A stretch of DNA of 64,000 bases, from positions 33,324 to 97,323 of the forward strand of contig CAMQBR010000001.1 in the NCBI GenBank assembly GCA_946999045.1. The letters are read 5' to 3'. Numbering within the stretch: the first letter of the stretch is position 1; the number at the start of each line of letters is the position of its first letter. The stretch is from an uncultured Prevotella sp. GTDB lineage: Bacteria; Bacteroidota; Bacteroidia; Bacteroidales; Bacteroidaceae. A program made the position numbers and the translations under genes. The notes under the pieces were generated by a model, which was given only the letters and a program-made list of their open reading frames with translations, searched no databases and was not told the DNA's origin. Positions 9,014 to 57,058 of this stretch are shown here, piece by piece.

Positions 9014-9089
9014 CTCATTAATAATCATACCAACTTAAAATTCTACGAATAAATCAAATTATTTTGTACCTTTGCCTAAAATATATTTT

Positions 9090-9875
9090 ATGATATTATT
9101 AAGTTTTGATACAGAAGAATTTGATGTTCCTAAAGAGCATGGAGTAGACATCTCTTTAGAAGAGGGAATACGTATTTCGGTTGAAGGTACTAACAAGATA
9201 TTAGACTGTTTGAAGCAAAATAAGGTACAAGCTACTTTCTTTTGCACAGGCAACTTTGCCAAACACTCCCCCAAAACCATTGAGCGTATTATGCAAGAGG
9301 GGCATGAGGTGGCGTGTCATGGGGTAGATCACTGGAAGCCTAAGGCTACAGATATATATGAATCTAAGCGCATTATAGAAGCGACAATAGGCAAAAAGGT
9401 GAACGGATATAGGCAACCACGTATGTTTTCTGTATCGGATACAGATATAGAGAAGGCTGGATATACGTATAATTCATCGCTGAATCCAGCTTGTATACCT
9501 GGTAGATATATTCATCTTACTATGCCACGAATATGGTTTATGCGTGGTAAGGTAATGCAAATACCAGCATCTGTTACCCCTTGGATTAGGTTTCCGCTTT
9601 TCTGGTTGTCGTTGCATAACTTGCCGCAGGCTCTGTATCATAGTATGACTCGGTGGGTATTGCGCCACGATGGTTACTTTGTTACTTATTTTCATCCTTG
9701 GGAATTTTACGAACTAAATGCGCATCGTGAGTACAAAATGCCATACATTATCCGAAAAAACAGTGGAGATAAAATGATTCAGCGATTAGATAACTTGATA
9801 AAAATGCTCAAGCAAAGGGGTGAGAAATTTATTACTTTCTCTGAATTTGTAGACAGAAAGCGAGGAAAAGCATGA
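9090..9875 (+). CDS. Polysaccharide deacetylase, ArnD/LgmC-like (lipid-linked amino-sugar deformylase/deacetylase)
   Basis: SFDTEEFDV…ATFFCTGNF…HEVACHGVDHW resembles ArnD motifs (DVDT…HAWDHH). Start set at ATG 9090; the track ORF begins at TTG 9072. Confidence 0.65.
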   Translation: MILLSFDTEEFDVPKEHGVDISLEEGIRISVEGTNKILDCLKQNKVQATFFCTGNFAKHSPKTIERIMQEGHEVACHGVDHWKPKATDIYESKRIIEATIGKKVNGYRQPRMFSVSDTDIEKAGYTYNSSLNPACIPGRYIHLTMPRIWFMRGKVMQIPASVTPWIRFPLFWLSLHNLPQALYHSMTRWVLRHDGYFVTYFHPWEFYELNAHREYKMPYIIRKNSGDKMIQRLDNLIKMLKQRGEKFITFSEFVDRKRGKA

Positions 9876-10834
9876 TAACATTAGCTACAGTATCGCCTTG
9901 TTACAACGAGGAAGATGTGTTAGAGACATCGGTTAATAGGCTTACTAACCTTTTTAACACTATGATAGCTCAAGGCCGTATTAGTGAAAAGAGCGTAATA
10001 GTTTTTGTTAACGATGGAAGCAAAGACCATACTTGGGAACTCATTTGCAAGTTGCAAAAGACCAATAAGTTTGTACGAGGTATCAATTTGTCAAGCAACG
10101 TAGGACACCAAAACGCTATTATGGCTGGTATGATGACGGCTCGCACTTGGGCAGATGCTGTGGTTACGATTGACGCTGACTTACAAGATGACTTAAAAGC
10201 TATCCCTAAAATGGTAGATGAGTATACTAATAATCATTGTGAGGTGGTGTATGGGGTAAAGATTTCACGACAAGCTGATCCGCTGTTGAAGCGTATGTCG
10301 GCTGTTGCTTTTTACCGATTACAAGAAAAATTGGGTGTAAAGAGTGTATTTAATCATGCAGATTTCAGACTGATGAGTAGGAAGGCACTTAATATCTTGT
10401 CTACGTACCATGAATGCAACTTATATCTAAGAGGACTAATACCAATGTTGGGCTTGCCATCGGCAACGGTTAATGAAGAAATTAGTGATAGACAGGCTGG
10501 TTCGTCTAAGTACACATTGCGCAAAATGCTCAACCTTGCACTCAACGGCATTACCTCGTTTACGGTTCATCCTATATATATGATTGTGTATTTAGGTTTA
10601 TTCTTTATTTTTCTCAGTATCTGTATAGGTATTTATGTTGTCCATGCCTTGGTTATAGGAACAGCTTATCCTGGTTGGGCTTCTATCATGATGAGTATTT
10701 GGCTGGTAGGAGGATTTATCCTTTTATCTATTGGCATTGTAGGTATTTATGTGGGAAAAATTTACACAGAGGTAAAGAATAGACCGCTTTATCATATCAC
10801 CGAAATTATTGGCGATGATGATCAAAAAAATTAA
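9872..10834 (+). CDS. GT2 polyprenyl-phosphate glycosyltransferase (ArnC/GtrB/LgmA-like) with two C-terminal TM helices
   Basis: SPCYNEEDVL…VFVNDGSKD…TIDADLQDD (DxD). C-terminal TM pair. ATGA start/stop overlap with the upstream deacetylase gene. Confidence 0.8.
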   Translation: MITLATVSPCYNEEDVLETSVNRLTNLFNTMIAQGRISEKSVIVFVNDGSKDHTWELICKLQKTNKFVRGINLSSNVGHQNAIMAGMMTARTWADAVVTIDADLQDDLKAIPKMVDEYTNNHCEVVYGVKISRQADPLLKRMSAVAFYRLQEKLGVKSVFNHADFRLMSRKALNILSTYHECNLYLRGLIPMLGLPSATVNEEISDRQAGSSKYTLRKMLNLALNGITSFTVHPIYMIVYLGLFFIFLSICIGIYVVHALVIGTAYPGWASIMMSIWLVGGFILLSIGIVGIYVGKIYTEVKNRPLYHITEIIGDDDQKN

Positions 10835-11237
10835 ATTGTACTGGCAATCCCATCCTTCCGTGCAAGCAGATATATGGCGAATTGTACGTTTTGGTATAGT
10901 GGGAACGGTTTGTTCGCTCATTCACTATGGCATTTATTGTATGTGTGTACTCATGAGCAATGCCAATATAGCTTATACGATAGGCTATATTGTAGGATTG
11001 GTATGTAATTATGTGCTTACTACGTATTTTACATTCAATAAAAAGCCCACAAAGCTCAATGCAGCTGGCTTTGTGGGGAGTCATATTATTAATTATTTAA
11101 TGGAGATAGGCTTACTCAACTTATTACTTTGGTTAGACATTAGCAAGTGGTTGTCGCCCATATTGGTGATGATTATAGCTGTTCCTATTAACTTTTTAAT
11201 GCTGCATTTTGTGTATTTACATAAGAAAAACAGATGA
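10809..11237 (+). CDS. GtrA-family small membrane protein (lipid-linked sugar translocation)
   Basis: 142 aa, 4 TM. RFGIVGTVCSLIHYGIY is typical of GtrA. Overlaps the GT2 gene end. Confidence 0.65.
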   Translation: MAMMIKKIKLYWQSHPSVQADIWRIVRFGIVGTVCSLIHYGIYCMCVLMSNANIAYTIGYIVGLVCNYVLTTYFTFNKKPTKLNAAGFVGSHIINYLMEIGLLNLLLWLDISKWLSPILVMIIAVPINFLMLHFVYLHKKNR

Positions 11238-11402
11238 TAAGAGTTTTTATTGTTAATAGGTTACGTATATTGGTATATAATATCATAACTATCTTATAAT
11301 AAAATAACAATATAACAACATTTTCAAAAAATATATATGTATAAGCTTGTGAGCTTTATAAGTTTGCAAATTGACGAGTTGTTATTTCTATCAGTAAAAT
11401 GA

Positions 11403-12593
11403 CTAATTATAAAGTTTAAGACTCAATGTATGATAATCTTTTACCATCATCTCATAACATAGTTTGAGCCAAACCAATGTACAAGGCAGAGCTTTGAGGG
11501 CGTATGCCTGAATAAGTCCCTTACGAATACATGACGGATAGAGGTCGGAAGAACCAAAACCTGATATTAATAATACCAATACCATAAGTGCTACATCCCA
11601 CTTATTGCGCTGCCATGAAGCAGAAAAGTACCAAATACACGTACCACTAATGCCTATAATATATGAACTACTCTCACTGCCTGTACTGAAAAGTACTACA
11701 AACAGCAGCACTGATGCAAGAATGTTTTGGCGGAATAAAGTATTTTTGTATTGAGAAATACGTAAGTAAGGAATAAAGAACAATATCAAGGCTGGTACTA
11801 TGAGCCATAAGTCGGAATAAGAAAAATTACCTGTAATATGTCTTACCATACCTAAAGCTGACACATTTTGCATCACCGACTCAATGTTTTCCTGATTTTT
11901 TTCTAACAACGTAACATACCATTCGTGGTATTGTCCTATTACATAATCGGCACTGCTGATAATCATAGGAGCGGTAAACAATACAACTGACCAGAACAAT
12001 AGTGATAAAAAAAATCGCCCTTTGTGTTTAGAAAAGAAGAAAAAGGCTAAACCTACTACACCATATAGTTTGACAAATGTTCCTAATATGATAAGGAAAG
12101 CTGCCCAAAAGTCACATTCTTTATCTATTAAGAAATACGAAGCTATAACAAAAGCGGCAATGGCTATATTGAATTGTTGCATAAACAGCGACGTTAGAAG
12201 GGTCTCTGCACAAAACCAATAGATAAATATTTGCTGCCTACAAGATAGTTTCGACTTGCTTACTGCTACGTACAATATCAGCGATAGTGCCACATTCCAA
12301 AACAACATACCTAACCATATGGGCATCACAGCAAAGGGAGCAACAACCAAGGAGAATACTGGTCCGTAATGGTTAACATCAAAATACTCATTAGGATAGG
12401 CTCCATATAAAGATGTTTGGTTAACGGTATGCCAAAAAACGCCACGAAAAATCAAGTAATTGTTATTACGGTGCAACTTTAATAGTGTGGCAATAATGGG
12501 TAAAAGAGTCCACAATCCTAACAAGGTTCGTTTATCACGAAAGAATGGTTTACTAAAAAAAATAGTACACTTGGTTTGTATTTGATTTATCAT
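11403..12593 (-). CDS. Polytopic membrane protein, putative GT-C-type glycosyltransferase (DUF2029/GT87-like)
   Basis: 396 aa, about 10 TM helices and a periplasmic loop with aromatic residues. Divergently transcribed from the eptA-like gene. Confidence 0.4.
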   Translation of the reverse strand: MINQIQTKCTIFFSKPFFRDKRTLLGLWTLLPIIATLLKLHRNNNYLIFRGVFWHTVNQTSLYGAYPNEYFDVNHYGPVFSLVVAPFAVMPIWLGMLFWNVALSLILYVAVSKSKLSCRQQIFIYWFCAETLLTSLFMQQFNIAIAAFVIASYFLIDKECDFWAAFLIILGTFVKLYGVVGLAFFFFSKHKGRFFLSLLFWSVVLFTAPMIISSADYVIGQYHEWYVTLLEKNQENIESVMQNVSALGMVRHITGNFSYSDLWLIVPALILFFIPYLRISQYKNTLFRQNILASVLLFVVLFSTGSESSSYIIGISGTCIWYFSASWQRNKWDVALMVLVLLISGFGSSDLYPSCIRKGLIQAYALKALPCTLVWLKLCYEMMVKDYHTLSLKLYN

Positions 12594-12712
12594 ACTCTAT
12601 TATCTTCATCATTTATAAGTGCCACAAAATTAGGAAAATAATTGCACAAGTGCGATAAGTTATGTAAAAAATATATAACTTTGCACAATCAACAAAAAAA
12701 AATCTACATTTA

Positions 12713-14416
12713 ATGTATTTAGAAAATAAGGATGTTGTTTCACCAAACTGGAAACAAAAGGTATGGTATGCTATTGTGAATTTTACCCAACAACATTTTC
12801 TTTTCATCGCTTTTATGTTGTTAGTTAATGTTCCGTACTTATATGTAATTTTCTCATTTGGTAAAGGCATACACCATTTTATGTATATGTGCTTTTTTAT
12901 GGTATGTCTAACATGTATTATCAAACTGATATCTAATGAGAAGATAAGGCTCACTGTGCAACGTATTATTGCCTTCTTATCGTTTTTATTACTGCTTGTT
13001 TCGCTATATTTTCTTTATTTCTACCACGGTTTACCCGATGGAGCTATCTTTGAAATACTATTGGCTACCAACCATCATGAGGCTACTGAATACTTACAGG
13101 CACATTTGCTCAACTTCCGACTTTATATAAGTATACTGGTTGTAGGGTTTGTTTTATTAGCTTGTTTTTTAGGTATTCTTAAATTACAGCGCAAGCGTTC
13201 TGTTATATTATTTACCAGTGTACTACTTATTTTTGCATGTATTTTTACCATGGTCAATATAATAAAAGATATAATAAAGGGCAAAGATAATACAGAATAC
13301 AGACTATTACATAATTGTTGTTCACTGGTTTCTGCCGTTACTTATACGTGTGATGCGATAAATAACATGAAGAAGCTAAAAAATATAGAAAAATATGGTA
13401 ACAAACATCCTCAATTATTAGAGAATAAAAGCACTATACCATACGTTGTATATATTGTGGGCGAATCTACATCTCGTCATCATACAAGTCTTTATGGCTA
13501 TCATCTTAACACCACACCTTATTTATGTGCACTCGAAAAGTCGGGTAATTTGGTAAAGTTTACAGATGTTATTAGTCCTAATGGTCAAACAATGGAGGTG
13601 CTTGGCAAGCTCTTTACCTTTTACAGACAAGGTGCCAAAGGTAATTGGTACGAGTATACTGACCTGTTTAGTATACTCAACATCGCAGGATATTACACTA
13701 CTTGGCTCTCCAACCAAGAGTATTCTGGCATCTATGGCAATAATGGAAGGTTCTATGCCGAGCGTTGTAAATCATTTTCATTCTCAACAATAAGGGAGTC
13801 TGACAGTTATATTGAAGCAAAATATGATGAATGTTTATTGCCTTTATTATCCCAAACCTTAAAGCATCCCAAGGCAAAGAACTTTATTGTATTGCACCTT
13901 ATGGGGACACATCAAGAATACAAAAAGCGTTATCCTAAAACGTTTAAGGCTTTTAGTGCAAATGTTGAACAGGGCGATAACGAAAAAATAAAACAGACAA
14001 AGGCTTACTATGATACAGCTGTACGATACAACGACAGTATTGTTAACGCTATTATCAATCAATTTAAGGATAAAAACGCATTGGTTATTTACACTTCAGA
14101 TCATGGAGAAGATGTAATGGAAATAAATAAAAAAGTGGCAGACCACGGTGATATTGATATTAATAACAACAAAGTGGAGATACCAATGGTGGTGTATATG
14201 TCTCCAAAATTCCAACAAAGTTATCCAAAATTGGTAACTCGTATCAAACAATCGGTTCATCGTCCGTTTATGACAGATGATATGATACACAGCATTCTTG
14301 ACCTTATGGAAATACGTACCAAGGAATATAATCCTACTTTTAGCATTTTTAATTCAAAATATAATGCAAAGAGAATAAGAATATGTGCATCCAAACGATA
14401 CCCAATAAAACCATAA
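12713..14416 (+). CDS. Phosphoethanolamine transferase (EptA/sulfatase family)
   Basis: 5 N-terminal TM helices plus a sulfatase domain (ESTSRHH…LHLMGTHQEY…YTSDHGE). Confidence 0.75.
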   Translation: MYLENKDVVSPNWKQKVWYAIVNFTQQHFLFIAFMLLVNVPYLYVIFSFGKGIHHFMYMCFFMVCLTCIIKLISNEKIRLTVQRIIAFLSFLLLLVSLYFLYFYHGLPDGAIFEILLATNHHEATEYLQAHLLNFRLYISILVVGFVLLACFLGILKLQRKRSVILFTSVLLIFACIFTMVNIIKDIIKGKDNTEYRLLHNCCSLVSAVTYTCDAINNMKKLKNIEKYGNKHPQLLENKSTIPYVVYIVGESTSRHHTSLYGYHLNTTPYLCALEKSGNLVKFTDVISPNGQTMEVLGKLFTFYRQGAKGNWYEYTDLFSILNIAGYYTTWLSNQEYSGIYGNNGRFYAERCKSFSFSTIRESDSYIEAKYDECLLPLLSQTLKHPKAKNFIVLHLMGTHQEYKKRYPKTFKAFSANVEQGDNEKIKQTKAYYDTAVRYNDSIVNAIINQFKDKNALVIYTSDHGEDVMEINKKVADHGDIDINNNKVEIPMVVYMSPKFQQSYPKLVTRIKQSVHRPFMTDDMIHSILDLMEIRTKEYNPTFSIFNSKYNAKRIRICASKRYPIKP

Positions 14417-14440: not shown

Positions 14441-15442
14441 TTACTTGTTAGTTATCTTAAAATACTTCTCTAAGACTAACAGAGATATAAGGCGTTCACG
14501 ACGCTGATTCATAAATTGTGCTACAAATTGATGGGCATGTTCTATAATAGCTTCGGCATCTTTGGGATGTTCTATGTAATAATGTAGCTGTTGAGACAAA
14601 TCGGAAAAGTTGGGCTTAATAGCAATATAATGGTAATTAGGAATAAGTTTACCCTCCATAAACCATGTTTCATAGGTAGGAGGTGGCATCACTGCAACCG
14701 AATTGGACGACATAATCCACTTCAAATTACTGGCAACATCATTACCTTCTAACGCCATAATAAACTTATAATCTAAATGCTGGCGAATGCTTAACTTTGT
14801 TGTATACCACTCAGTAAACTGCTTATCCACTACTCCAGCATCCACTAAAGGATGCTGAAAATACTTTTGCATAAAGTATAAGCGATTTAATTTAAGGTTA
14901 TTTCCTGCTTTTTGTCCTATCTCTCCCCTAAAAATAACCATATTCTTTTTATCTCGAAATTTTTTTTTGTCATGCGTAAAAATAAAATGGCGCACACGAT
15001 CTAATTTCATTATCACAGAATTTTGATTATCTCCAGCAATGGGACGGCTCTTTACTATTGTTGGTAAAGTGGGGATAGTGATTACATCTCCAGCCTCTAC
15101 TATCCATTTGTTACATAGCGGAAAGGCTTTGGCATAGCGATAAGAATCAAGATAATATACCTTTGGGTGCATAATACGTTGCTCACAAAGCATGGTAGAC
15201 TGGATGTTAAATGCTGTATCATCTATATCTGTTTTATTAGATAATCTATTATAATAATTTACCCTTTCTTTAATATATGCTTTATCCTTTCGCTTGGTAA
15301 AAGCTCGTTTATCTCTCTGCCACAACCACTTTAATATAAAATGTGGTATATTTATTTGTATGTATGACACAAGATAATACGACCATTTAGCGTTCTTATC
15401 ACTTTTTAAAAAGTATTTTATTTGATACAGAAAGTTTTTCAC
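14441..15442 (-). CDS. Putative LPS-modifying glycosyltransferase (GT90/CAP10-like)
   Basis: 333 aa soluble protein in an LPS gene string; 4-bp overlap with the upstream GT2. Family assignment is from memory of CAP10-type proteins and is weak. Confidence 0.3.
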   Translation of the reverse strand: MKNFLYQIKYFLKSDKNAKWSYYLVSYIQINIPHFILKWLWQRDKRAFTKRKDKAYIKERVNYYNRLSNKTDIDDTAFNIQSTMLCEQRIMHPKVYYLDSYRYAKAFPLCNKWIVEAGDVITIPTLPTIVKSRPIAGDNQNSVIMKLDRVRHFIFTHDKKKFRDKKNMVIFRGEIGQKAGNNLKLNRLYFMQKYFQHPLVDAGVVDKQFTEWYTTKLSIRQHLDYKFIMALEGNDVASNLKWIMSSNSVAVMPPPTYETWFMEGKLIPNYHYIAIKPNFSDLSQQLHYYIEHPKDAEAIIEHAHQFVAQFMNQRRERLISLLVLEKYFKITNK

Positions 15443-16248
15443 TCGTATTGATATTTATCTAATCCATTGGTACACCATGATTTTTTTTCTCTCTGTGTAC
15501 GTTCTAATTCTTTGTAATTGCTTTTTGCATTCTCACGAGATGCTACTGAATGTAACAAATGGTATTCTACTCCACCAAATTTCAGACTACGTTTGTGCAC
15601 ACCAGCAAAATGCAATCTGTAAGCTAATTCGCTATCTTCGTATCCCCACTCTATAAAGTCTTCATTGAAACCATTTACCTTTATAAGATCCTTTCTCCAA
15701 TAAGCCATATTGCATCCACGAGCATGAGCTATATCTCGATCATACCTATCGGCTAAAAATTGACGAAGATAATGACAACGATATTTATTAAAAATATGTC
15801 CCAGAGATAAATCCCACAAAAATATTTTGAATTTTTGAGTCTTTAATATTTTTTCTGTAGTTTTCTTAGACAATAAAACTCTTGATCCACACACAAAACA
15901 ATTTGGTTGACAAATATCTAAATGATCACTAATAAAATAAGGAGATAGCACTACATCACCATCTATTTCAATGATATAATCGCCCTCCATTTCCGTAATG
16001 GCTTTATTAAGAATGATAGTTTTACGAAAACCTTTGTCCTCATGCCACACATGTTTGATGGGTACAGTACTTTCTTTTTTTAGTTTTTCTATCAGTTCTC
16101 GTGTGTCATTTTTTGAGCCATCATCCGCAATAGCTATCTCATAAGGTAGCACTGTTTGGGCAAAAATACTACGCAAACATAATGCTAATGCCTCTTTCCA
16201 ATTATAGGTAGAGACCAATATTGATACTTTTATTTGTGTCTTCTCCAT
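15439..16248 (-). CDS. Glycosyltransferase family 2 (LPS core-type)
   Basis: VSILVSTYNWKEALALCLRSIFAQT…IAIADDGSKNDT…EIDGD motifs. Confidence 0.75.
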   Translation of the reverse strand: MEKTQIKVSILVSTYNWKEALALCLRSIFAQTVLPYEIAIADDGSKNDTRELIEKLKKESTVPIKHVWHEDKGFRKTIILNKAITEMEGDYIIEIDGDVVLSPYFISDHLDICQPNCFVCGSRVLLSKKTTEKILKTQKFKIFLWDLSLGHIFNKYRCHYLRQFLADRYDRDIAHARGCNMAYWRKDLIKVNGFNEDFIEWGYEDSELAYRLHFAGVHKRSLKFGGVEYHLLHSVASRENAKSNYKELERTQREKKSWCTNGLDKYQYE

Positions 16249-16284
16249 TTACTTTTTTCTTGATTTCATAGCAGCAAATGCATA

Positions 16285-17445
16285 TTATCTACCTTGTTGC
16301 AATAATTGATTGTACACCTCTTCCACCTGTTCTGCAACATTTAAGTTTTCAAAACGTTGTACATATAGTTTGCTACGTTCTATCTTTTCAGCCCTATTGT
16401 CATTGCCTTTCAATATAGATATAATGGCTTGTGCCATAGCTTGTACATCATCTGGATGAACATACAGACTATCAGGACCGCCTGCTTCTTCTAAACAAGA
16501 ACCTGTGCAAGCCACTATGGGTAAACCACTCTGTATGGCTTCAATGATAGGAATACCAAAACCTTCATAGCGAGAGGGATAAACAAAGCATTCGGCTTGC
16601 TGATAAATGGCTGGTAATTCAGCATTACTCACACCATGAAAAATATGTATACGACTTTTCAGGGCATATGCTTTGGCATATTTTTCTATTTTATTTAGAT
16701 AAGGAGTAGCTCGACCTACTGCAACAAGTTCTATATCTGAAGGTAATTGTTGCAATGCTTTAACGGCTAATAGTAAGTTTTTACGCTCTTCTATTGAACC
16801 AACGTACAATATATAACGTTTTGGCAAATGATAAATAGCATCTACTCTCTGCTTTTCTTCATTGCTAACAAGCCGCTTAAAGTTCGTTCCACATGATTGA
16901 TAAATTACTTTTATTTTTTCTTCTGGATAATTAGAATATTCCAATATATCTTGTTTGGTACACTCACTAATAGCAATTATGCAATCGGCTTCTTTGCAAG
17001 TAGACAGGAATTTATGCTTATATAACCAAGCATCTATACAATGATAATATTCGGGATGACGAAGAAAGATAAGATCGTGTATGGTAACAACACTTTTTAT
17101 TCCACTTTCGTTGATGCCAACAGGTAATTCTCCCGATAGTCCATGATACACTTCTACCCCATCGTACAGCAGTTGTTTTACAATACCTCGATGTCTCCAA
17201 TAATCTTTTTGCCACCTAAATCGAAAGCCTTGTGGATAACAAAAATCTATATTCTCAGCCTCTCTTATCTGCTGTCTCAGTGCATCATTACCCTTATCAG
17301 GTGCATATAGTTGTAGTTTAAGATGCGCATTTACTTCTGATAGCGCATTTACAAGCGTTCTACCATAATTTCCCAATCCCGTATTGTTACTAACAATGCG
17401 CTTTGCATCAAAGCCAATAGTAGTTATACTTTTGGTATTTTCCAT
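16285..17445 (-). CDS. Glycosyltransferase family 4
   Basis: YPSRYEGFGIPIIEAIQSGLPIV (EX7E motif region). Confidence 0.8.
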   Translation of the reverse strand: MENTKSITTIGFDAKRIVSNNTGLGNYGRTLVNALSEVNAHLKLQLYAPDKGNDALRQQIREAENIDFCYPQGFRFRWQKDYWRHRGIVKQLLYDGVEVYHGLSGELPVGINESGIKSVVTIHDLIFLRHPEYYHCIDAWLYKHKFLSTCKEADCIIAISECTKQDILEYSNYPEEKIKVIYQSCGTNFKRLVSNEEKQRVDAIYHLPKRYILYVGSIEERKNLLLAVKALQQLPSDIELVAVGRATPYLNKIEKYAKAYALKSRIHIFHGVSNAELPAIYQQAECFVYPSRYEGFGIPIIEAIQSGLPIVACTGSCLEEAGGPDSLYVHPDDVQAMAQAIISILKGNDNRAEKIERSKLYVQRFENLNVAEQVEEVYNQLLQQGR

Positions 17446-17456
17446 TTATAAACAGG

Positions 17457-18437
17457 CTATTTTTGTTTTATCTTTTTATTTGTTTCCATGCTTTTGATTT
17501 GCTCTGAAAATCTTAAATTAAACTCTTCTCTTGTACGTTTCCAGCGATTATGACTCCATAACCATAAGGCAGGATCACGATGAATGGTTGCTTCTAACAA
17601 CTTAAAATATTGGTCTGTAATTTCCCATTCACTACATTTTTTTGGTTGAAGGGTTATAAGTTTTAACTCACATTTATAATATCCTCGCTTTATGCGATGC
17701 ATATCCCCATAAAAACAAGCCTCATCGGTTTTCTTTACAATACGCTCGGCACCTGTAAGTACAGGGGTATCATGATTTAAGAAGTTAACCCAATGGTGAA
17801 TATTGTGCCACAAAGGAACTTGATCGGCAATATATCCTACTACTACGGTTTTGCTTTGCTGTCTGAAACGCAATATCTTTCTTATGGATTCTTGCATGGG
17901 TATACATAAAGAATTATTGAGTTCTCGTACATCCTTAAACAACTTATCAAAATATTGATTTTCTAATGGATGATATAGCTGACAGCATTGGGTAGACGGT
18001 GTGAGCCAATAAGGCAACGAGGATACCCACTCCCAGTTGCAATAATGACCTAAATAGATAGCACACGACTGTCCACAACTCAATACTTCATTTATTTTTT
18101 CGATACCCACAAATCGCATTCTCTTTTTAAATTGCACTTCAGACATATTCATGAGCTTTATAGTTTCTACAATATAATCGCAAAACCAATGGTAAAACTC
18201 TTTCTCTATTTCCCTAATTTCCTTATTGCTTTTCTTTGGAAAACTGGTTGATAAGTTCTTAATAATAATAATATGACGATATTTTATAAAGTATACTAAA
18301 AGCAAATAGAGTATATCGGATAAACGGTATAACACCCATAAAGGTAGTAATGATAGTAAATACCAAATGGTATATACTAATATATATCCTATTTTCTGTA
18401 ATAACTTTTTCATTAAAATAATAAATGCATTCGGCAC
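17457..18437 (-). CDS. Lipid A late acyltransferase (LpxL/HtrB family)
   Basis: N-terminal TM anchor and LPLAT-type fold (…AIYLGHYCNWEW…). Sits within the LPS cluster. Confidence 0.6.
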   Translation of the reverse strand: MPNAFIILMKKLLQKIGYILVYTIWYLLSLLPLWVLYRLSDILYLLLVYFIKYRHIIIIKNLSTSFPKKSNKEIREIEKEFYHWFCDYIVETIKLMNMSEVQFKKRMRFVGIEKINEVLSCGQSCAIYLGHYCNWEWVSSLPYWLTPSTQCCQLYHPLENQYFDKLFKDVRELNNSLCIPMQESIRKILRFRQQSKTVVVGYIADQVPLWHNIHHWVNFLNHDTPVLTGAERIVKKTDEACFYGDMHRIKRGYYKCELKLITLQPKKCSEWEITDQYFKLLEATIHRDPALWLWSHNRWKRTREEFNLRFSEQIKSMETNKKIKQK

Positions 18438-18581
18438 AAAGTTAGCAAATTAGCCTTTATCTTGCAAGCATTTAAGGTTTTAGTTGTGAGTGTTTCGGCA
18501 GACAAAAACTGCAGACTGCAATATCTGTTCTCCCCACATAAAAAACTATGTCAGTTAACTCCCTATAACTCTCATCATACC

Positions 18582-20573
18582 TCATGGCAACATCTTATTA
18601 TTTACTATTCTGTACATATATTGGTAAATAATAGCTTTCAGCTCACGTTCCATTTTTACTTGCTGTTTTACTTTTCCTAAAAGGTTGTGTTTCATCAGTT
18701 TATCATCTAAACGATAAATAGCCTTAGTTTTTTTGCCATCAAATTGTAATACATAACCGTACTTACAATATTGGTAAATACCATTAAGATAATTCACAGC
18801 GTACGTCTCACCCATTGGAGTAGTCATCAGGTCGCAACCATAAGAGATAAAGGGTTTGTTATACCCCAATATGCTAAGTACGGTAGGTAATATATCTATT
18901 TGCTGAGCTATGCCCAGTTGCATACCTGGAGACACTTCACCTGAAGGGTCGAAGATAATGATAGGCGAACAAAAACCGCCAATATCTGTTTGGTATTGTT
19001 GGTGATCACTCATATTGGTATGGTCGCTTGTCATCACAAAAATAGTATTTTTGTACCATGGTTGCTTTTTAGCAGTTTCAAAGAACTTACCAATAGCCAT
19101 ATCGGTATAGCGTATACATTTGTGCATAACGATACCCTCTTCAGGAAAAACCTTTTTATATTTATCTGGAATGACATAAGGCGTATGACTGGTAACCGTA
19201 AAACAAGCCGTCATAAAAGGTTGCTTCATTTCACCTATCTTAGTTGCCCAGTACTGTAAAAACGGCTCATCCCATATACCCCAATGCCCATCAAAGTCGG
19301 CATCACCACCAAAACGTTTGTCCTCATCATAATCTTGCCTGCCGTAATAGTGCTGAAAACCAGTTTTATTGGCAAAAGCTAAAAATCCCATACTTCCCCT
19401 GTTAGCACCATGGAAGAAAGCTGTTTCATACCCTTCTTTTTCTAAAATACCAGCCATTCCTGTATAATTGTTCATGGAAGCTGGTGTTAAAACAAAGGGA
19501 GATATAAACATAGGGATGCCACACAATACAGATGGCATACCATCAATGCTCTTTCTGCCATTGCAAAAAGAATATTGATAAACTCTACTTTTAGCTATAA
19601 GTTTATCTACATTAGGTGTATATCCTTTGTATTTGCCACCGTCTAAATCTTTATTAAAAGCACCAATGTACTCTCGTCCAAAACTTTCAACAATAAGAAC
19701 TACTACATTTTTTTTACGAAATGGATGTGTAGGTTGCAGACAATGAACTGGTGAGAAAAACTTTTCGGCTTCCTTTAGATTAGAGAAATAGGTTGGAATT
19801 GTAAATACATCTTTACCAATGGTTCGCAAAAGAGCAAAAGGGGTATTTAATACCAAGGCACATTCGGTAGGTCGCTCAACATATTGATTGGCATTATTCA
19901 CCGTAATAGGTCGAATACCTGTACCCAAGCCGCCTCTGCATGCACCTATTATTAAAGGTGTAGTAAGCAATAATAATAACAGTTGCACCCCTACAAAGCT
20001 TAATTTACTCTTTATAGTAATATATTTTGTATAATGAGTACGAGGCATTACATAGAGCTTCCACATTAAAAAGATAACAAAAATAGCCAACAACAGCAAA
20101 TACCAATGTACTAAGAGTTCGCCCCAAATAACATCGGTCAAGTTAGTTTCATTACTAAATTCTCTAAATACACTGGTTGTAGTACGGCGAAGGGTATAAG
20201 GAAAATATACCGAATCGCATAAATTGATAATAAAAGCCAATGCATTAACTACTACAAACAACCATTTACAAAACAGATGATAGCCTTTGTGCTCTTTTAT
20301 CCACAAGGGAAAGAGCATAGCTACAATGTATAACATATTAGTATAAGCAATAGCAGATCTGTCAAATATGTATCCACCCCAATACATTGTGGCAAAATTA
20401 GACCACGTAAGATGTTCTGAGAAATAACTAAAATTCTCCAACAAAAATTCTGTTCGTGCAATAAAATACACTACAAATACCATGAACAAATTGATTATCA
20501 TAGCCACAAAGGGAGAAAGCATCTGTTTCAGTTCTTTATATTTTTCATTATCCATATCTTTTTCTATCTTCAT
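18582..20573 (-). CDS. LTA-synthase/sulfatase-family membrane protein (phosphoglycerol/phosphoethanolamine transferase-like)
   Basis: 663 aa. 5 N-terminal TM helices and a C-terminal alkaline-phosphatase-superfamily domain (…VMTSDHT…). Confidence 0.7.
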   Translation of the reverse strand: MKIEKDMDNEKYKELKQMLSPFVAMIINLFMVFVVYFIARTEFLLENFSYFSEHLTWSNFATMYWGGYIFDRSAIAYTNMLYIVAMLFPLWIKEHKGYHLFCKWLFVVVNALAFIINLCDSVYFPYTLRRTTTSVFREFSNETNLTDVIWGELLVHWYLLLLAIFVIFLMWKLYVMPRTHYTKYITIKSKLSFVGVQLLLLLLTTPLIIGACRGGLGTGIRPITVNNANQYVERPTECALVLNTPFALLRTIGKDVFTIPTYFSNLKEAEKFFSPVHCLQPTHPFRKKNVVVLIVESFGREYIGAFNKDLDGGKYKGYTPNVDKLIAKSRVYQYSFCNGRKSIDGMPSVLCGIPMFISPFVLTPASMNNYTGMAGILEKEGYETAFFHGANRGSMGFLAFANKTGFQHYYGRQDYDEDKRFGGDADFDGHWGIWDEPFLQYWATKIGEMKQPFMTACFTVTSHTPYVIPDKYKKVFPEEGIVMHKCIRYTDMAIGKFFETAKKQPWYKNTIFVMTSDHTNMSDHQQYQTDIGGFCSPIIIFDPSGEVSPGMQLGIAQQIDILPTVLSILGYNKPFISYGCDLMTTPMGETYAVNYLNGIYQYCKYGYVLQFDGKKTKAIYRLDDKLMKHNLLGKVKQQVKMERELKAIIYQYMYRIVNNKMLP

Positions 20574-20609
20574 ATATTTATACCTTTCACATCTTAACCT
20601 TTTATCATT

Positions 20610-22442
20610 TCAAGTTTCCTGCATATCGTGTAGTTTCTTGTAATATCCACTTTTTTTAATGAGTTCATCGTGTGTACCTCGCTCCACAATACGTCCCTCG
20701 TGCAATACACATATCTCATCAGCATATTTTATGGTAGACAATCGGTGTGCAATAGCCACCGTAGTACGAGTACTCATCAATCTTTCTAAGGCATTTTGTA
20801 CTAATCGTTCGCTTTCAGTATCAAGCGCACTGGTAGCCTCATCTAATATTAAAATAGGTGGATTTTTAAGAATAGCACGTGCAATAGATATACGCTGACG
20901 CTGTCCACCACTTAATTTGTTACCTCTATCTCCAATATTTGTATCAAACTGATGCTCAGATTCCATAATAAAATCATAAGCATTGGCAATGCGAGCTGCA
21001 CGTTCTACATCCTCTTTAGTGGCATAATCTACCCCAAAAGTTATATTGTTATAGAAGGTATCGTTAAAAAGAATAGCCTCTTGATTAACGTTTCCTATTA
21101 ATTGTCGCAAACTATGAATACCTAAGTTGCGCACATTGATACCATCAATAAATACTTCACCCTCTTGAACATCATAGTAACGAGGTATCAAATCTACCAA
21201 TGTAGATTTTCCACTACCACTCTGTCCTACCAAAGCAACAGTCTTTCCTTTAGGTATAACGAGGTTAATGTGGCGCAATACCCACTGATCGTTATACTTA
21301 AATGATACATTGCGAAACTCTATTTCATTTTTAAATTCTGGTATCTGTATAGGTTTTTCTACCTCCTTAATATTTATATTAGTATTTAATATCTTATCAA
21401 TACGCTCAATAGAAGCCAAACCTTTCATAATAGCATACCCCGCTTTAGATACTTCTTTTAGTGGATTAATTATACTATATAGCATTACAAGATAATAAAT
21501 AAAAGTAGAACCACTTAAAACCTGCTGATTAAGAACCAAAATACCACCTACCCATAGCACAATAACTATTATGAAAGTACCTAAAAATTCGCTCATAGGA
21601 TGTGCAAGTTGCTGGCGTATAGTTACCTCCAGCACTGTTTTTCTATATAGATTGTTAACCTTATAAAATCGTTTTATCATTTTACTTTCAGCACAAAACG
21701 CCTTGATAATACGCAAACCTCCTAAAGTTTCTTCTACTTGACTCATGGTATCGCTCCACAAACTTTGTGCTTTTACACTATTTTGCTTGAGCTTTCTGCC
21801 TACTAATCCCATCAACCAACCAAAGATGGGAACAAACAGAATGGTAAAAATAGTCAACTCCCATGAGATAATTAACAAGGTAATAAAATAGGTAATGATG
21901 AGGATAGGATTTTTAAACATCATATCTATTGATGACATGATAGAGTTTTCTATCTCTTGTACATCACCACTCATACGAGCAATAATATCACCTTTGCGTT
22001 CTTCAGAGAAGAATCCAAGCGACAAATATATTACCTTACTATATAGTTTATTGCGAATATCACATACAATACCCGTACGGATAGGCATAACCGATGCCGA
22101 AGAAAGAAAAAAAGAAACTGTTTTAAGAAAGGTCATAAACAACAAAAACAACCCTATAAGCAGTAAAGCCGTAGTTGTACCATAATCGGTTATGAGTTGT
22201 TGTACATAATAATTGGCATTATTTATCAATACAGTGGGCACGTCTTTCAGATTGTTGGGCCATGCCATTAACGTTGTAACTTGTTGTTTAGTAATCTTAA
22301 ACAATATGTTAAGGATAGGAATAATAGCCGCAAACGAAAAGATATTCAATATAGCTGTAAGTATATTGAACAAAACGGATAGGAACACATAACGCTTGTA
22401 TGGACCTACAAACCTTCGCAATATTTGTATAAATTGTTTCAT
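20610..22442 (-). CDS. ABC transporter ATP-binding/permease, MsbA-like lipid A/LPS flippase
   Basis: 6-TM exporter domain plus NBD with Walker A GQSGSGKST, signature LSGGQRQR and Walker B ILILDEATSALD. Confidence 0.85.
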   Translation of the reverse strand: MKQFIQILRRFVGPYKRYVFLSVLFNILTAILNIFSFAAIIPILNILFKITKQQVTTLMAWPNNLKDVPTVLINNANYYVQQLITDYGTTTALLLIGLFLLFMTFLKTVSFFLSSASVMPIRTGIVCDIRNKLYSKVIYLSLGFFSEERKGDIIARMSGDVQEIENSIMSSIDMMFKNPILIITYFITLLIISWELTIFTILFVPIFGWLMGLVGRKLKQNSVKAQSLWSDTMSQVEETLGGLRIIKAFCAESKMIKRFYKVNNLYRKTVLEVTIRQQLAHPMSEFLGTFIIVIVLWVGGILVLNQQVLSGSTFIYYLVMLYSIINPLKEVSKAGYAIMKGLASIERIDKILNTNINIKEVEKPIQIPEFKNEIEFRNVSFKYNDQWVLRHINLVIPKGKTVALVGQSGSGKSTLVDLIPRYYDVQEGEVFIDGINVRNLGIHSLRQLIGNVNQEAILFNDTFYNNITFGVDYATKEDVERAARIANAYDFIMESEHQFDTNIGDRGNKLSGGQRQRISIARAILKNPPILILDEATSALDTESERLVQNALERLMSTRTTVAIAHRLSTIKYADEICVLHEGRIVERGTHDELIKKSGYYKKLHDMQET

Positions 22443-22817: not shown

Positions 22818-23900
22818 ATGGTAGAAAACAACTATTGCATTATACTTGCAGGTGGAAAGGGTAAACGTTTGTGGCCCTGCAGCAGAGAGGAAAAACCAAA
22901 ACAATTTATCGACTTCTTTGGAACTAAACAAACCTTACTTCAACAAACATACAAAAGAATGTTAAAGGTAGTTCCTAAAGAAAATATTCTCATAAGTACT
23001 AATAAAACATACTTAAAATGGGTGAAAGAGCAATTACCATCGGTTTCAGAAGATAGCATATTAGCCGAACCTATACACCGAAACACAGCTCCAAGTGTAG
23101 CATGGGCTGCACATCGCATATTAAAATTTAATGCCAATGCCAATTTATTAGTAGCACCGTCCGATCAAATTATTTTTAATGAAGAGGCATTTATAAAAGA
23201 TATTCAGAAAGGATTTAGATTTGTTAAACAAAAAGAAGGATTGCTTACCTTAGGTATAAAACCTACCCGCCCCGAACCTGGATATGGATATATACAATTA
23301 GGTGAACCTTTAGGTAATGATTTGTATAGCGTACAATCATTTACCGAAAAACCAGAAAGATATTTTGCCACCATGTTTGTTAAAAGTGGAGAATTTTATT
23401 GGAACACAGGTATGTTTATATCAAACATTGCATTTTTATCACATTGTATTAATAAGTTTTTGCCGTTTGTATTGGGTAACCTTGATACAATGAACCCTCA
23501 TTGGACTATTGAAGAAGAAAATCAATTTATTAATGACAACTATCCTCTCTATCCTAATCTATCAGTTGATTACGGTGTACTAGAAAAATCAGAACACGTA
23601 TACGTAATGAAATGTAGCTTTGGTTGGGCAGATATTGGTACATGGCATAGCATTTACGAGGCTATGCAGAAAAGTGAAAATGATAATGTAGTAATAGATA
23701 GTGATGTTATTTTAGAAGAAAGTCATAATAATGTAATTAAACTTCCTAAAGGTAAACTTGGCATCATTAACGGACTCGATGGATATATCATTGCCGAACA
23801 TGGTAACGTACTGCTTATTTGTAAAAAAGAAGATTCATCCGCATTAGTTAGAAAATATGTAAACAAAGCTCAGATAAAAAAAGGAATTGATTTTATATAA
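22818..23900 (+). CDS. manC: Mannose-1-phosphate guanylyltransferase
   Basis: IILAGGKGKRLWPCSREEKPKQF nucleotidyltransferase N-terminus. 360 aa with no PMI domain. Confidence 0.8.
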   Translation: MVENNYCIILAGGKGKRLWPCSREEKPKQFIDFFGTKQTLLQQTYKRMLKVVPKENILISTNKTYLKWVKEQLPSVSEDSILAEPIHRNTAPSVAWAAHRILKFNANANLLVAPSDQIIFNEEAFIKDIQKGFRFVKQKEGLLTLGIKPTRPEPGYGYIQLGEPLGNDLYSVQSFTEKPERYFATMFVKSGEFYWNTGMFISNIAFLSHCINKFLPFVLGNLDTMNPHWTIEEENQFINDNYPLYPNLSVDYGVLEKSEHVYVMKCSFGWADIGTWHSIYEAMQKSENDNVVIDSDVILEESHNNVIKLPKGKLGIINGLDGYIIAEHGNVLLICKKEDSSALVRKYVNKAQIKKGIDFI

Positions 23901-23903
23901 TAA

Positions 23904-24089
23904 GGCAGGTTCTATAAATTATCACCATATATAGTTAGTAAATTTTACGAAATACGTTTTGTTTCCTTTTGGCTTCTTTTTATAGAAAATAGGCTACAAA
24001 TCAGATAAACTTAATTGTATTCGGTCTACACTTTTTTCGATTCAAAAATAAATTAAAAAATCTAACAAGGCTAATTTATAGAACCAACC
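23904..24089 (+). mobile_element. MITE-like element copy 3 (divergent interior, same TIR type), TSD ATAA
   Basis: GGCAGGTTCTATAAATTATCACC…AAGGCTAATTTATAGAACCAACC. Begins 4 bp after the manC stop. Confidence 0.55.
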
Positions 24090-24214
24090 ATAACATCTAA
24101 AAAAAAACTTGTACATATTTTTAACACAGATAAAACATAATCACACTAAACATTAGGTTGCATTTTTTATCTGTGGTTAGGTAATTTTGAAAAACTACAC
24201 TCCCACTTATTTAT

Positions 24215-24534
24215 TTATCAACAAAAAGTGTAGATAACTATGTTTATAACCTCTGTATAACTCACAATTTACTAACACTACCTTAAATTAACCAAACAAG
24301 AAGTAGATATCCACATAGTTATCACAGCTATTTACCTATAATATCCACAGTTTTTCAACGAAAAAAAATATCAACTTATTAACAATACCCGTATAACTCG
24401 CTCTTTGTTGATAACTATTATAAGTAACAGATACACAACAAAAAGATATTATTCCAATAGGTGTATAATAGAAAACATAAATTTAATAACTAAATAGAGA
24501 AATATTTAGATAAAAATTTATCAACATATCCACA
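24215..24534. promoter_or_regulatory. Cluster of DnaA-box-like 9-mers in AT-rich gene-free region (candidate oriC / DnaA-binding locus)
   Basis: TTATCAACA (24215), TTATCTACA rc (24229), ATATCCACA (24307), TTATCACAG (24319), ATATCCACA (24341), GTTATCAAC rc (24407), TTATCAACA (24518), ATATCCACA (24526). Six are within 1 mismatch of TTATCCACA in 320 bp. Confidence 0.35.
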
Positions 24535-24750
24535 CTATATCATCCCTCTATTGTTTTATCTCTTTTAAATTTTAAAAAGAGTAAATATATAAATAGAGTG
24601 TTGAAAAGAAGAAGAAGAATAATATTGGACATACACTTCTATTTATTGAATTTTTTTTAAGAAATAGTAGGTATTATGTTGCAACTGCTAACATTAATGA
24701 GATTACTTTTAAGTGAGCCACTCCATTTTATAAGGATACCTACCTATCAA

Positions 24751-24765
24751 ATTATAGAACCGCCC
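24751..24765. repeat. Solo MITE family-1 terminus
   Basis: ATTATAGAACCGCCC. Confidence 0.35.
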
Positions 24766-24866
24766 TATGTAAAGAATGATAATAGATATATTTTTATTAG
24801 TTTCTTCAAAAAAAATATTCCTAAAAAATATATATACTTAGATAAATATATTTATATTTGTATAAA

Positions 24867-25058
24867 GGGCGGTTCTATAGATTAGCTTTGACAGATTGTG
24901 AGACTATTTTTGAGGTCAATTTGTTTGTAAGCGAAGGAGTATAGCGAGCTATACTCCTGAACGAACAAGCAAATTGAACCAAAAAGAGTCCACAAGATGA
25001 TAAAACGTAAATAGACTGGCATAAAAAAACTTTACGGTGGTAATTTATAGAACCGCCC
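24867..25058 (-). mobile_element. MITE-like element copy 4 (family 1, 192 bp), TSD TAAA
   Basis: Reverse orientation. The ACCACCGTAAAG end lies 34 bp upstream of the 25092 ATG. Flanked by TAAA. Confidence 0.8.
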
Positions 25059-25091
25059 TAAAATAATTTCAACTCATTTATTTATTAGTTT

Positions 25092-26255: not shown

Positions 26256-26283
26256 GCCCTGTATTTTATACTGGTATTATCTT

Positions 26284-28290: not shown

Positions 28291-28305
28291 ATCATACCAC
28301 AACGT

Positions 28306-54365: not shown

Positions 54366-54853
54366 TAAAGATTATAGAGTATTGCTGAGAAACAGCGAGT
54401 TACAAGAATAGATATATAAAAATTTTGGCAAAAAATATCATTTTTGATCGGTTTACTATAATAATAAGTCTGCAAGTTTCTGATATTCAATGTTTATGAT
54501 TGCTGAATAGTTACACCATAAATACTCTCTTTAAAATATAATTAATCTATACTAAATGTGTTAAATATATCTTTTGTAATATTGTTTATACTATATATAT
54601 AATGTTTTAATTGGAACTATAAAACTTTTGTTTTATAGTTCACTTATTAATCTACTTTCTATTTGTAAGCTATTGTACATTTTTTGTGTTATTTTGCAAA
54701 TATATGCTAATAATAAATACAGTGCAAGTAAACAAGTAGAATAGTGACATCGTTAAACACTTTTTAACCAAACAGGCATTAAAATAGAAAAAATATCAAT
54801 AATTACATAAGCAGAAAAAGCAAGTACAAAATAAAAGATAAGTGTTATGTGTT

Positions 54854-54942
54854 AGGCTGGTTCTATAAATTAGCATTGCATACAGTAATTAATTTTTATG
54901 AAAATACGTTTTTTTATCTTTTAGTTTCTTTTTAGAACCGCC
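54854..54942. mobile_element. Short (89 bp) MITE family-1 derivative
   Basis: GGCTGGTTCTATAAATTAGC…TTTTTAGAACCGCCC. Shares flanks (GTGTTA|…|TTTTAT) with the 57764 element. Confidence 0.5.
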
Positions 54943-54948
54943 CTTTTA

Positions 54949-56940: not shown

Positions 56941-57058
56941 GGGGAAATATGGAATTATATGTATGTAGATACAAAAATAATTTGAAAACCTTAATATGGC
57001 AAATAAAAATAAAATTATTTTTAGTACTGCAAAAATATAAGTACATTTGCTTGTAGAT

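Follow-up and report, generated by a model that had tools for sequence, protein, structure and literature searches.

A Bacteroidales deacetylase-GT2-GtrA cassette linked to a GT87 glycosyltransferase: a candidate hexosamine-decoration system in a lipid A/core gene cluster of Prevotella

A stretch of 64,000 nucleotides (nt) from an uncultured Prevotella species (contig CAMQBR010000001.1, positions 33,324 to 97,323; hereafter the window) carries four adjacent genes whose products resemble the parts of a periplasmic glycan-decoration system with a deacetylase added. The forward strand encodes a deacetylase of the NodB/CE4 type (9090..9875, 261 amino acids, aa), a glycosyltransferase of family 2 (GT2) of the GtrB/ArnC type (9872..10834, 320 aa) and a small membrane protein of the GtrA family (10815..11237, 140 aa), which are called the trio below. 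The reverse strand encodes a polytopic GT-C glycosyltransferase of family GT87, formerly DUF2029 (11403..12593, 396 aa), and a fifth gene on the forward strand (12713..14416) encodes a phosphoethanolamine-transferase-like membrane enzyme of 567 aa. Open reading frame (ORF) calls and Pfam assignments bear out the presence of all five genes where an earlier note on this DNA had placed them. The stop codon of the deacetylase gene and the start codon of the GT2 gene share the four nucleotides ATGA (9872-9875), and independent gene callers start GtrA at the ATG at 10815, which gives a 20-nt overlap with the end of the GT2 gene (10834); both overlaps had been described in that note. The ORF limits offer alternative starts for the deacetylase (9072/9090) and for GtrA (10809/10815). 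The deacetylase start is the ATG at 9090, and the N-terminus M(I/V)LLSFDTEEFDVP is identical across 33 orthologues. The GT87 gene is convergent with the GtrA gene and divergent from the phosphoethanolamine-transferase-like gene.

The deacetylase matches the Pfam family Polysacc_deac_1 (E 1.1e-16) and, weakly, DUF3473, and shows no Pfam match to YdjC at E <= 0.01. A transmembrane (TM) scan found neither a signal peptide nor a TM helix, and the enzyme is therefore predicted to be cytoplasmic. It opens directly with the conserved motif MILLSFDTEEFD, invariant among orthologues, and the residues D7, E9, H77, H81, R108 and H202 are invariant in 26 deacetylase orthologues, as would be expected of an intact metal-dependent CE4 site. 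Its closest PDB sequence matches are N-deacetylases of peptidoglycan and chitin, acting on N-acetylglucosamine (GlcNAc) or N-acetylmuramic acid (MurNAc). The ArnD protein of E. coli is likewise leaderless, with the start ...RIDVDT..., and an N-terminal D-x-D/E motif is common to both proteins. Aligned by hhalign, the profile of the 26 orthologues matches E. coli ArnD along almost all of its length with a probability of 92% (E 5.6e-7, 26% identity, 196 columns); the NCBIfam ArnD model gives the window protein 18 bits at a cutoff of 382, and the protein lies far under every curated NCBIfam cutoff. These comparisons point to a remote homologue of ArnD, not an orthologue or equivalog.

The GT2 protein (Pfam Glycos_transf_2, E 1.7e-23) has its best PDB match in Synechocystis GtrB (5ekp, E 6e-53); ArnC structures come next (E about 1e-29), and an end-to-end alignment with E. 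coli ArnC shows 26% identity (E 2e-34). The NCBIfam models PgfS (193 bits), ArnC (121 bits, cutoff 529) and PpgS (43 bits, cutoff 370) all score it below their cutoffs. With TM helices at residues 244-262 and 272-290 towards its C-terminus, it has the predicted architecture of a GtrB/ArnC-type polyprenyl-phosphate glycosyltransferase and appears not to be an ArnC equivalog. The GtrA protein (Pfam GtrA_DPMS_TM, E 2.4e-18), whose gene is kept 3' of the GT2 gene in most related loci, would act as the flippase or an accessory factor for a sugar carried on undecaprenyl phosphate (Und-P). A GT2, a GtrA protein and a linked polytopic GT-C protein together present the architecture of three-component periplasmic glycosylation, in which the GT-C protein would use the donor. 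CsbB/GtcA/YfhO-type systems are built in this way, and the module belongs to their general class (PMC5836110).

The fourth protein covers profile positions 2-236 of 237 of the GT87 family in Pfam (PF09594, E 1.6e-30, 107 bits at a cutoff of 25) and has no Pfam match to PMT or PMT_2. An AlphaFold2 model built with 40 homologues reached a predicted local distance difference test score (pLDDT) of 95 and a predicted template-modelling score (pTM) of 0.93. When this model was compared with the PDB by Foldseek, mycobacterial PimE (9dm7/9dm5) ranked at the top with template-modelling scores of 0.65-0.73 (9dm7, 0.68/0.73), followed by PIG-U, GPI mannosyltransferase I, ALG6 and ALG3, and ArnT (5ezm) scored 0.40. 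There was no profile similarity to E. coli ArnT (hhalign probability 0.1%), and a phmmer search of PDB sequences returned nothing meaningful; PimE surfaced solely through the fold search. By its modelled fold the protein is predicted to be a GT-C enzyme, and the GT87 profile match and the structural match to PimE agree with the GT-C-like character proposed earlier. The N-terminus, rich in Lys and Arg, is followed by TM1 and then by a loop containing D72. The first loop after TM1 is the usual position of the catalytic Asp in GT-C enzymes. D72 is conserved in 34/40 homologues and Y76 in 40/40, with K175, E307 and D350 conserved too, and D72 is a candidate counterpart of the catalytic Asp of PimE.

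Relatives of the GT87 protein with E < 1e-30 fall into about 313 clusters when grouped at 50% identity. They include natural fusions (P0131, P0137, P0153, P0194 and P0224) in which a GT87 domain at the N-terminus shares 40-49% identity with the window protein and precedes a C-terminal DPM1/GtrB-like GT2 domain, so that donor synthase and GT-C enzyme lie in one polypeptide; the GT2 domain of these fusions resembles the window GT2 (E 1e-6). Proteins on metagenome contigs of the same gene order share 99% identity with the window GT87, and proteins of Hoylesella timonensis and of an uncultured human-gut Prevotella share 82%. In a neighbour-joining tree the window GT87 falls within the main group of orthologues, together with Hoylesella and oral Prevotella. 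This placement rejects the idea that it is the deacetylase-unlinked paralogue of those rumen Prevotella that carry two copies. Rumen Prevotella copies of 54-56% identity are a lineage-specific duplication inside the main group in the same tree, and the second rumen Prevotella copies (43-56% identity) and a distant group of ~630 aa are separate from the window GT87. Second-copy and distant GT87 genes are often paired with a second GT2 gene without a deacetylase.

As an observation apart, two to three GT87-family genes lie in the LPS (lipopolysaccharide) region of several loci, including those of rumen Prevotella (L030, L037, L079, L080, L024, L064 and L070) and L012, L025, L036, L046, L050 and L054. 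At such loci the 54-56% paralogue directly follows the deacetylase-GT2 pair, and a second GT2 (about 35% identical) stands without a deacetylase; the distant GT87-like protein of ~630 aa adjoins yet another GT2. This arrangement suggests that multi-GT87 Prevotella make several periplasmic decorations with different sugars. We found no published characterisation of a Bacteroidota GT87/DUF2029 protein or of a deacetylase-GT2-GtrA module.

The conservation of the module was followed from the GT87 gene and from the deacetylase gene. A GT87 scan with one genome per species yielded 525 relatives, and the best 80 of these 525, which come from Prevotella, Hoylesella, Bacteroides and Phocaeicola, were used. 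The locus search profile was a narrower GT87 alignment, the 40 diverse GT87 sequences being too divergent; synteny was read by tblastn, and counts were taken from those 53 species loci in which GT87 has 5 kb or more of flanking sequence on each side. A deacetylase gene lies within 5 kb of GT87 in 21/53 of these loci, where chance would give roughly 0.4%, and the whole trio is present in 14 of the 21. At least one of the GT4, LpxL, MsbA and LtaS-like genes lies within 8 kb of GT87 in 42/53 species loci. The layout varies among lineages. In Hoylesella (L004-L009) GT87 and the trio converge, and in oral Prevotella (L014, L042, L045) a GT87-GT4 pair is followed by the convergent trio. The genes run on one strand in the order deacetylase-GT2-GT87-GtrA in L035, L044 and Bacteroides salyersiae (L074), and in the order deacetylase-GT2-GtrA-GT87 in L015 and Phocaeicola faecicola (L016). 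When the B. salyersiae GT87 served as the query in the hope of reaching a B. thetaiotaomicron orthologue, the matches listed were dominated by near-identical B. salyersiae sequences and added no further relatives. A PMT_2 gene occurs in 1/80 GT87-anchored loci.

A metagenome scan with the deacetylase profile gave the reverse view. In most sufficiently long loci a GT2 gene, and usually a GtrA gene as well, follows the deacetylase gene. Where 6 kb or more of sequence is available on each flank, the GT-C partner near the deacetylase is GT87 in 11 loci, PMT_2 in 11 and neither in 7, counts that are inflated by near-identical contigs. In a few metagenomic loci the neighbours of the deacetylase-GT2 pair are unrelated genes, for example for efflux pumps and regulators, and LPS genes are missing from the vicinity. 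The PMT_2-linked trio of Bacteroides is orthologous to that of the window, with a GT-C enzyme of the PMT_2/ArnT family instead of GT87. Between the window and these ArnT-coupled orthologues the deacetylase is 64-68%, GT2 58-64% and GtrA 58-62% identical; against the operon versions of B. salyersiae and Ph. faecicola, GT2 is 55-56% and GtrA 46-47% identical. Deacetylase identity tracks taxonomy over partner (B. salyersiae versus B. heparinolyticus, 76%), and GT2 and GtrA group partly by GT-C partner. We conclude that deacetylase, GT2 and GtrA form a portable donor cassette across the Bacteroidales, which supplies either a GT87 or an ArnT-family GT-C enzyme. Since several Bacteroides species have the same trio paired with a genuine ArnT-family GT-C, an Arn- or Lgm-like logic for the cassette gains support; the same pairing may leave more than one GT-C enzyme as a candidate user of the donor in the genome studied here. 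The ArnT-coupled clusters themselves (L138:6151-14065, L167:10001-17794 and, in B. heparinolyticus, L165:10001-13901) are candidate systems for hexosamine modification of lipid A or core in major gut Bacteroides, and we found no publication that characterises them.

Several known systems share the logic of the module without sharing its parts. The Arn pathway of E. coli and Salmonella (ArnB, ArnC, ArnA, ArnD, ArnT, ArnE/F) is alike in that a GT2 enzyme loads an N-acylated amino sugar on Und-P, a cytoplasmic NodB-fold enzyme deacylates it, and a flippase and a GT-C enzyme then bring about its periplasmic transfer to LPS. It differs in that no ArnA or ArnB was found in the window, so that the sugar of the module would presumably be supplied as a common UDP-N-acetylhexosamine (UDP-HexNAc), and in that the module has a GtrA-family protein where Arn has ArnE/F and a GT87 transferase where Arn has ArnT (GT83, PMT_2). 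The Pfam scan covered window ORFs of at least 120 aa, leaving out seven shorter ORFs nested in longer scanned ones, and among the scanned ORFs it found no ArnA/ArnB-like aminotransferase, formyltransferase or UDP-sugar (UDP-GlcA) dehydrogenase/decarboxylase, in line with the absence of ArnA and ArnB homologues asserted in the earlier note. Lacking ArnA/B, ArnT and ArnE/F, and with sub-threshold matches to ArnC and ArnD, the module is best regarded as no member of the Arn system.

The Bordetella LgmABCD system, which places glucosamine (GlcN) on lipid A phosphates, and the FlmF2/NaxD/FlmK system of Francisella and Acinetobacter, which places galactosamine (GalN) on lipid A, are alike in the proposed conversion of Und-P-HexNAc to Und-P-hexosamine (Und-P-HexN) and in transfer to LPS without dedicated sugar-nucleotide synthesis genes. 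FlmK is ArnT-like and LgmC is NaxD-like. The deacetylase NaxD falls in the YdjC superfamily (PMC11279074), and LgmB is orthologous to ArnT (PMC11895810, PMC10743493). The module differs in having a NodB/CE4 deacetylase in place of the YdjC-type NaxD and a GT87 transferase in place of the ArnT-orthologous LgmB, and its sequences indicate that it is not a Lgm/Flm member. At the level of families, the proposal of a better match of its gene content to LgmABC or FlmF2/NaxD/FlmK than to Arn does not hold, because the deacetylase is NodB/CE4 and not YdjC and the transferase is GT87 and not an ArnT orthologue; GT2 and deacetylase resemble their Arn counterparts more than those of Lgm or Flm, the reverse of what had been proposed. 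What survives of the proposed Und-P-HexNAc pathway is its sequence of steps, which fits families, topology and synteny, and what falls is its assignment to Lgm/Flm families.

The same logic recurs in the mycobacterial and corynebacterial system that adds GalN to arabinogalactan, where a GT2 enzyme with a small GtrA-like helper makes polyprenyl-phosphate-linked N-acetylgalactosamine, which is deacetylated, flipped and transferred by a GT-C enzyme (PMC9671496). In mycobacteria PpgS, Rv3632 and Rv3779 install the GalN and the deacetylase is still unidentified (PMC9671496), whereas the module has a dedicated deacetylase gene that overlaps the GT2 gene; acceptor and phylum differ as well. PimE and other GT87 mannosyltransferases belong to the same Pfam and CAZy family, provide the closest solved fold and share the conserved first-loop Asp. 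They differ in sequence (16-19% identity), and the module GT87 is from Gram-negative Bacteroidota, lies in an LPS cluster and is linked to a HexNAc-type cassette.

It is moderately probable, in our assessment, that the four genes constitute a periplasmic glycan-decoration system of the kind that uses a polyprenyl-phosphate sugar, a flippase and a GT-C enzyme, to which a deacetylation step has been added. At the cytoplasmic face, GT2 would load an N-acetylhexosamine from a UDP-sugar onto undecaprenyl phosphate, and the cytoplasmic CE4 deacetylase would then strip the N-acetyl group to give Und-P-hexosamine, an irreversible step like that of ArnD in the 4-amino-4-deoxy-L-arabinose (Ara4N) pathway. 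GtrA would flip Und-P-hexosamine or assist in its flipping. At the periplasmic face, GT87 would move the hexosamine to lipid A-core after export by MsbA and thereby place a positive charge on the lipooligosaccharide (LOS), with possible effects on cationic-peptide resistance and immune recognition. This order, from Und-P-HexNAc through deacetylation and flipping to periplasmic transfer, appears the most economical because of the families, the topology and the missing ArnA/ArnB, and it is backed by the conserved synteny and the GT87-GT2 fusions; annotation of the ArnC/ArnD/ArnT operon gives the same order of action. The GT87 donor is probably not mannose, given the genomic link of the enzyme to a deacetylase-containing donor cassette. 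As to the acceptor, we would with low confidence place it in the core rather than at a lipid A phosphate, because the Bacteroidales structures cited next put a free amino sugar in the core, in B. thetaiotaomicron, and none on lipid A. Free, non-acetylated GlcN and phosphoethanolamine (PEtN) are present in the LOS core of B. thetaiotaomicron (PMC12890309), and PEtN has been reported on Kdo or lipid A in Bacteroidales LPS (PMC12890309, PMC13508109, bioRxiv 10.1101/2024.04.13.589361); hexosamine on lipid A is not reported in the Bacteroidales LPS structures of these three sources. The LOS cluster of B. thetaiotaomicron has a GtrA-like gene between glycosyltransferases (PMC5850320).

Several observations weigh against a single hexosamine pathway ending in GT87. 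To our knowledge, the GT87 enzymes characterised to date are mannosyltransferases, and the GT2 sequence does not reveal its sugar specificity. In about half of the species no trio lies within 5-8 kb of GT87; P. denticola (L028), for example, has GT87-GT4 and no trio nearby, and its sister P. multiformis (L042) has the trio. In a subset of rumen Prevotella there are two GT87 paralogues together with a second GT2 that has no deacetylase, which is evidence that donors vary. Moreover, B. ovatus, B. xylanisolvens and B. faecium have the order msbA-deacetylase-GT2-gtrA-sulfatase-family gene with a convergent PMT_2 gene, whose product in the B. ovatus group is named 'ArnT family glycosyltransferase' in databases. 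B. heparinolyticus repeats the architecture of the window with another GT-C family, its PMT_2 gene being convergent with GtrA-GT2-deacetylase, and its GT87 lies at a separate locus beside GT4 (L047). GT87 may hence use another donor and the window trio may serve an unlinked ArnT-like enzyme. Spelled out, this is the alternative that two separate LPS functions adjoin here, with the trio feeding an ArnT-family (GT83-like) enzyme encoded elsewhere, which may act on the lipid A 1-phosphate, and GT87 extending the core from Und-P-mannose or Und-P-glucose; we judge it rather unlikely, and it draws on most of the points just listed. The trio adjoins PMT_2 in B. heparinolyticus and is one gene away from it in the other three Bacteroides species, the window GT2 and GtrA resemble the ArnT-coupled versions (64% and 58-62% identity) more than the operon versions of B. 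salyersiae and Ph. faecicola, and the closest solved structure belongs to PimE, which is an alpha-1,2-mannosyltransferase. The LOS of Segatella copri ends in alpha-1,2-Man-Man (PMC12890309), and this terminal dimannose would be an example of a GT87 product. However, the Pfam scan found no PMT_2 gene in the 64-kb window, GT87 holds the exact convergent slot that the ArnT-like gene has in B. heparinolyticus, and the near absence of PMT_2 from GT87-anchored loci, the five same-strand GT87-trio loci (L035, L044, L074, L015, L016) and the GT87-GT2 fusion proteins all argue for a joint function of GT87 and trio. The two views may also be combined, it being possible that one donor cassette serves several GT-C enzymes, as RgtE serves RgtA-D in Rhizobium.

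Other doubts concern the acceptor and the deacetylase. Three-component GtrA/GtrB/GT-C systems modify many polymers (PMC5836110), the sequence does not reveal the acceptor, and several metagenomic deacetylase-GT2 pairs have no LPS genes nearby, so the hexosamine could go to a capsule or exopolysaccharide, an O-glycosylated envelope protein or another glycolipid. We hold such an acceptor to be improbable in view of the GT4, LpxL, MsbA or LtaS-like genes within 8 kb of GT87 in most species loci, the position of the B. ovatus-group trio directly 3' of msbA, and the lack of capsule export and polymerase genes in the window. CE4 enzymes, for their part, include O-deacetylases. The CE4/NodB family contains acetylxylan esterases, ArnD is a deformylase, and the window deacetylase has no NCBIfam match above a curated cutoff; its substrate could be an O-acetyl, formyl or other N-acyl sugar, in which case the residue would be neutral or different and the module unrelated to charge. 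We consider this last alternative very improbable, as Pfam found no formyltransferase or O-acetyltransferase encoded near the module, the best-scoring relatives of the enzyme are GlcNAc/MurNAc N-deacetylases, its tight overlap with a GtrB/ArnC-type GT2 mirrors ArnC-ArnD, and free GlcN is documented in Bacteroides LOS core (PMC12890309).

The logic of the module is familiar and its function is predicted by analogy; what is new is that the transferase comes from an unexpected family and that the GT-C partner is interchangeable. Bacteroidales LPS is among the most abundant microbial molecules of the human gut and mouth, and its charge pattern, made up of PEtN, free GlcN and missing phosphate, shapes TLR4/MD-2 signalling and cationic-peptide resistance. 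According to a 2025 review, the genes for core decorations and glycans of Bacteroidales LOS are largely unstudied (PMC12632263). If the cassette installs a free amino sugar, it would offer a widely conserved genetic handle on this pattern in Prevotella, Hoylesella and Bacteroides, and if GT87 is the enzyme that transfers a hexosamine, the free GlcN of Bacteroides LOS would be explained. The module would then also supply the kind of deacetylase still missing from the mycobacterial GalN pathway and extend GT87 beyond actinobacterial mannosyltransferases. Carried to its full extent, the proposal would make this enzyme the first GT87 to be given a role beyond the Actinobacteria, and also the first known to draw on a non-mannose donor, moving a cationic hexosamine from Und-P to the inner core of Bacteroidales LOS, with a cassette common to, or exchanged between, GT87 and ArnT-like GT83 enzymes that decorate different LPS sites; we put this forward tentatively and as itself doubtful. 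The apparent swap of GT87 and ArnT-family enzymes beside one cassette amounts to a natural experiment on donor and acceptor specificity of GT-C enzymes. P. denticola, whose LPS structure is published, and P. multiformis form a natural presence/absence pair for LPS comparison.

Beyond the module, the phosphoethanolamine-transferase-like protein matches the Pfam families Sulfatase (E 1.1e-46) and EptA_B_N and has about five N-terminal TM helices and a sulfatase domain. It carries the motifs GESTSR and SDHGE, which we take to be phosphoethanolamine transferase motifs. Its best NCBIfam score is to CptA (241 bits, cutoff 404), ahead of EptA (125/108 bits, cutoffs 561/660) and EptB (106 bits), each of them under its curated cutoff, and no equivalog-level EptA match was obtained from NCBIfam. 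The earlier description of an EptA-family neighbour thus holds as regards a phosphoethanolamine-transferase-like enzyme divergent from the GT-C gene, and has to be amended in that CptA scores above EptA and the pairing is local. An orthologue stands beside GT87 in 0 of the other species loci; the gene was considered as a part of the module and rejected because its adjacency is conserved in no other species, and it is a local neighbour.

The flanking lipid A/core block on the reverse strand (14441..22442; Pfam/NCBIfam) comprises genes for GT90 (14441-15442), a further GT2 (15439-16248), GT4 (16285-17445), LpxL (17457-18437), an LtaS/OpgB-like protein of the sulfatase family (18582-20573) and MsbA (20610-22442), and WaaA is encoded in the same window (39239-40456). 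The module therefore does sit inside a core LPS cluster, as had been noted. The 663-aa sulfatase-family protein between LpxL and MsbA had been read as a second enzyme alongside the EptA-like one; it matches the NCBIfam models LtaS (E 7e-22) and OpgB (E 2e-17) and is better classed as LtaS/OpgB-like, that is phosphoglycerol-transferase-like, and not EptA-like. In many Bacteroidales loci its gene is found together with those for LpxL, MsbA and GT87, and the protein may decorate LPS with phosphoglycerol or a comparable head group.

TAnnTTTG is the -7 promoter consensus of Bacteroidota. It matches the window 140 times against 93 expected, a number reached by 0/100 shuffles, and matches to sigma-70-type promoters are fewer than the shuffle expectation, as expected for Bacteroidota. 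Motifs of the TAnnTTTG type stand 16-32 nt 5' of the deacetylase, GT87 and phosphoethanolamine-transferase-like starts and are putative promoters: TACCTTTG at 9067..9074 on the forward strand, 16 nt 5' of the deacetylase ATG; TAATTTTG at 12625..12632 on the reverse strand, 32 nt 5' of the GT87 start; and TAACTTTG at 12676-12683, upstream of the phosphoethanolamine-transferase-like gene. The interval that separates the convergent GtrA and GT87 genes yielded no site resembling an intrinsic terminator.

Some further features of the window deserve mention. Its lowest-GC stretch (24000-26300, GC 0.25 versus about 0.36) contains an ORF of 387 aa (25092-26255) that matches no Pfam family and adjoins a PorZ-like component of the type IX secretion system (26284-28302) and an NTP_transferase sugar-nucleotidyltransferase (22818-23900). 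Next to waaA, a GH2 protein of 1188 aa (35316-38882, reverse strand) combines an exo-beta-D-glucosaminidase Ig-fold with F5/8 type C domains; enzymes of this class act on non-acetylated GlcN, and the gene lies 20 kb from the putative hexosamine module and probably serves nutrition. On the reverse strand at 52859-57339, beside a SusD-like gene (51224-52840), there is a 400-aa C-terminal barrel fragment of a TonB-dependent receptor (52859-54061, TTG start), followed by a gap and then by an ORF of 796 aa without a convincing family; the fragment may be part of a disrupted SusC-like gene or may reflect mis-called starts.

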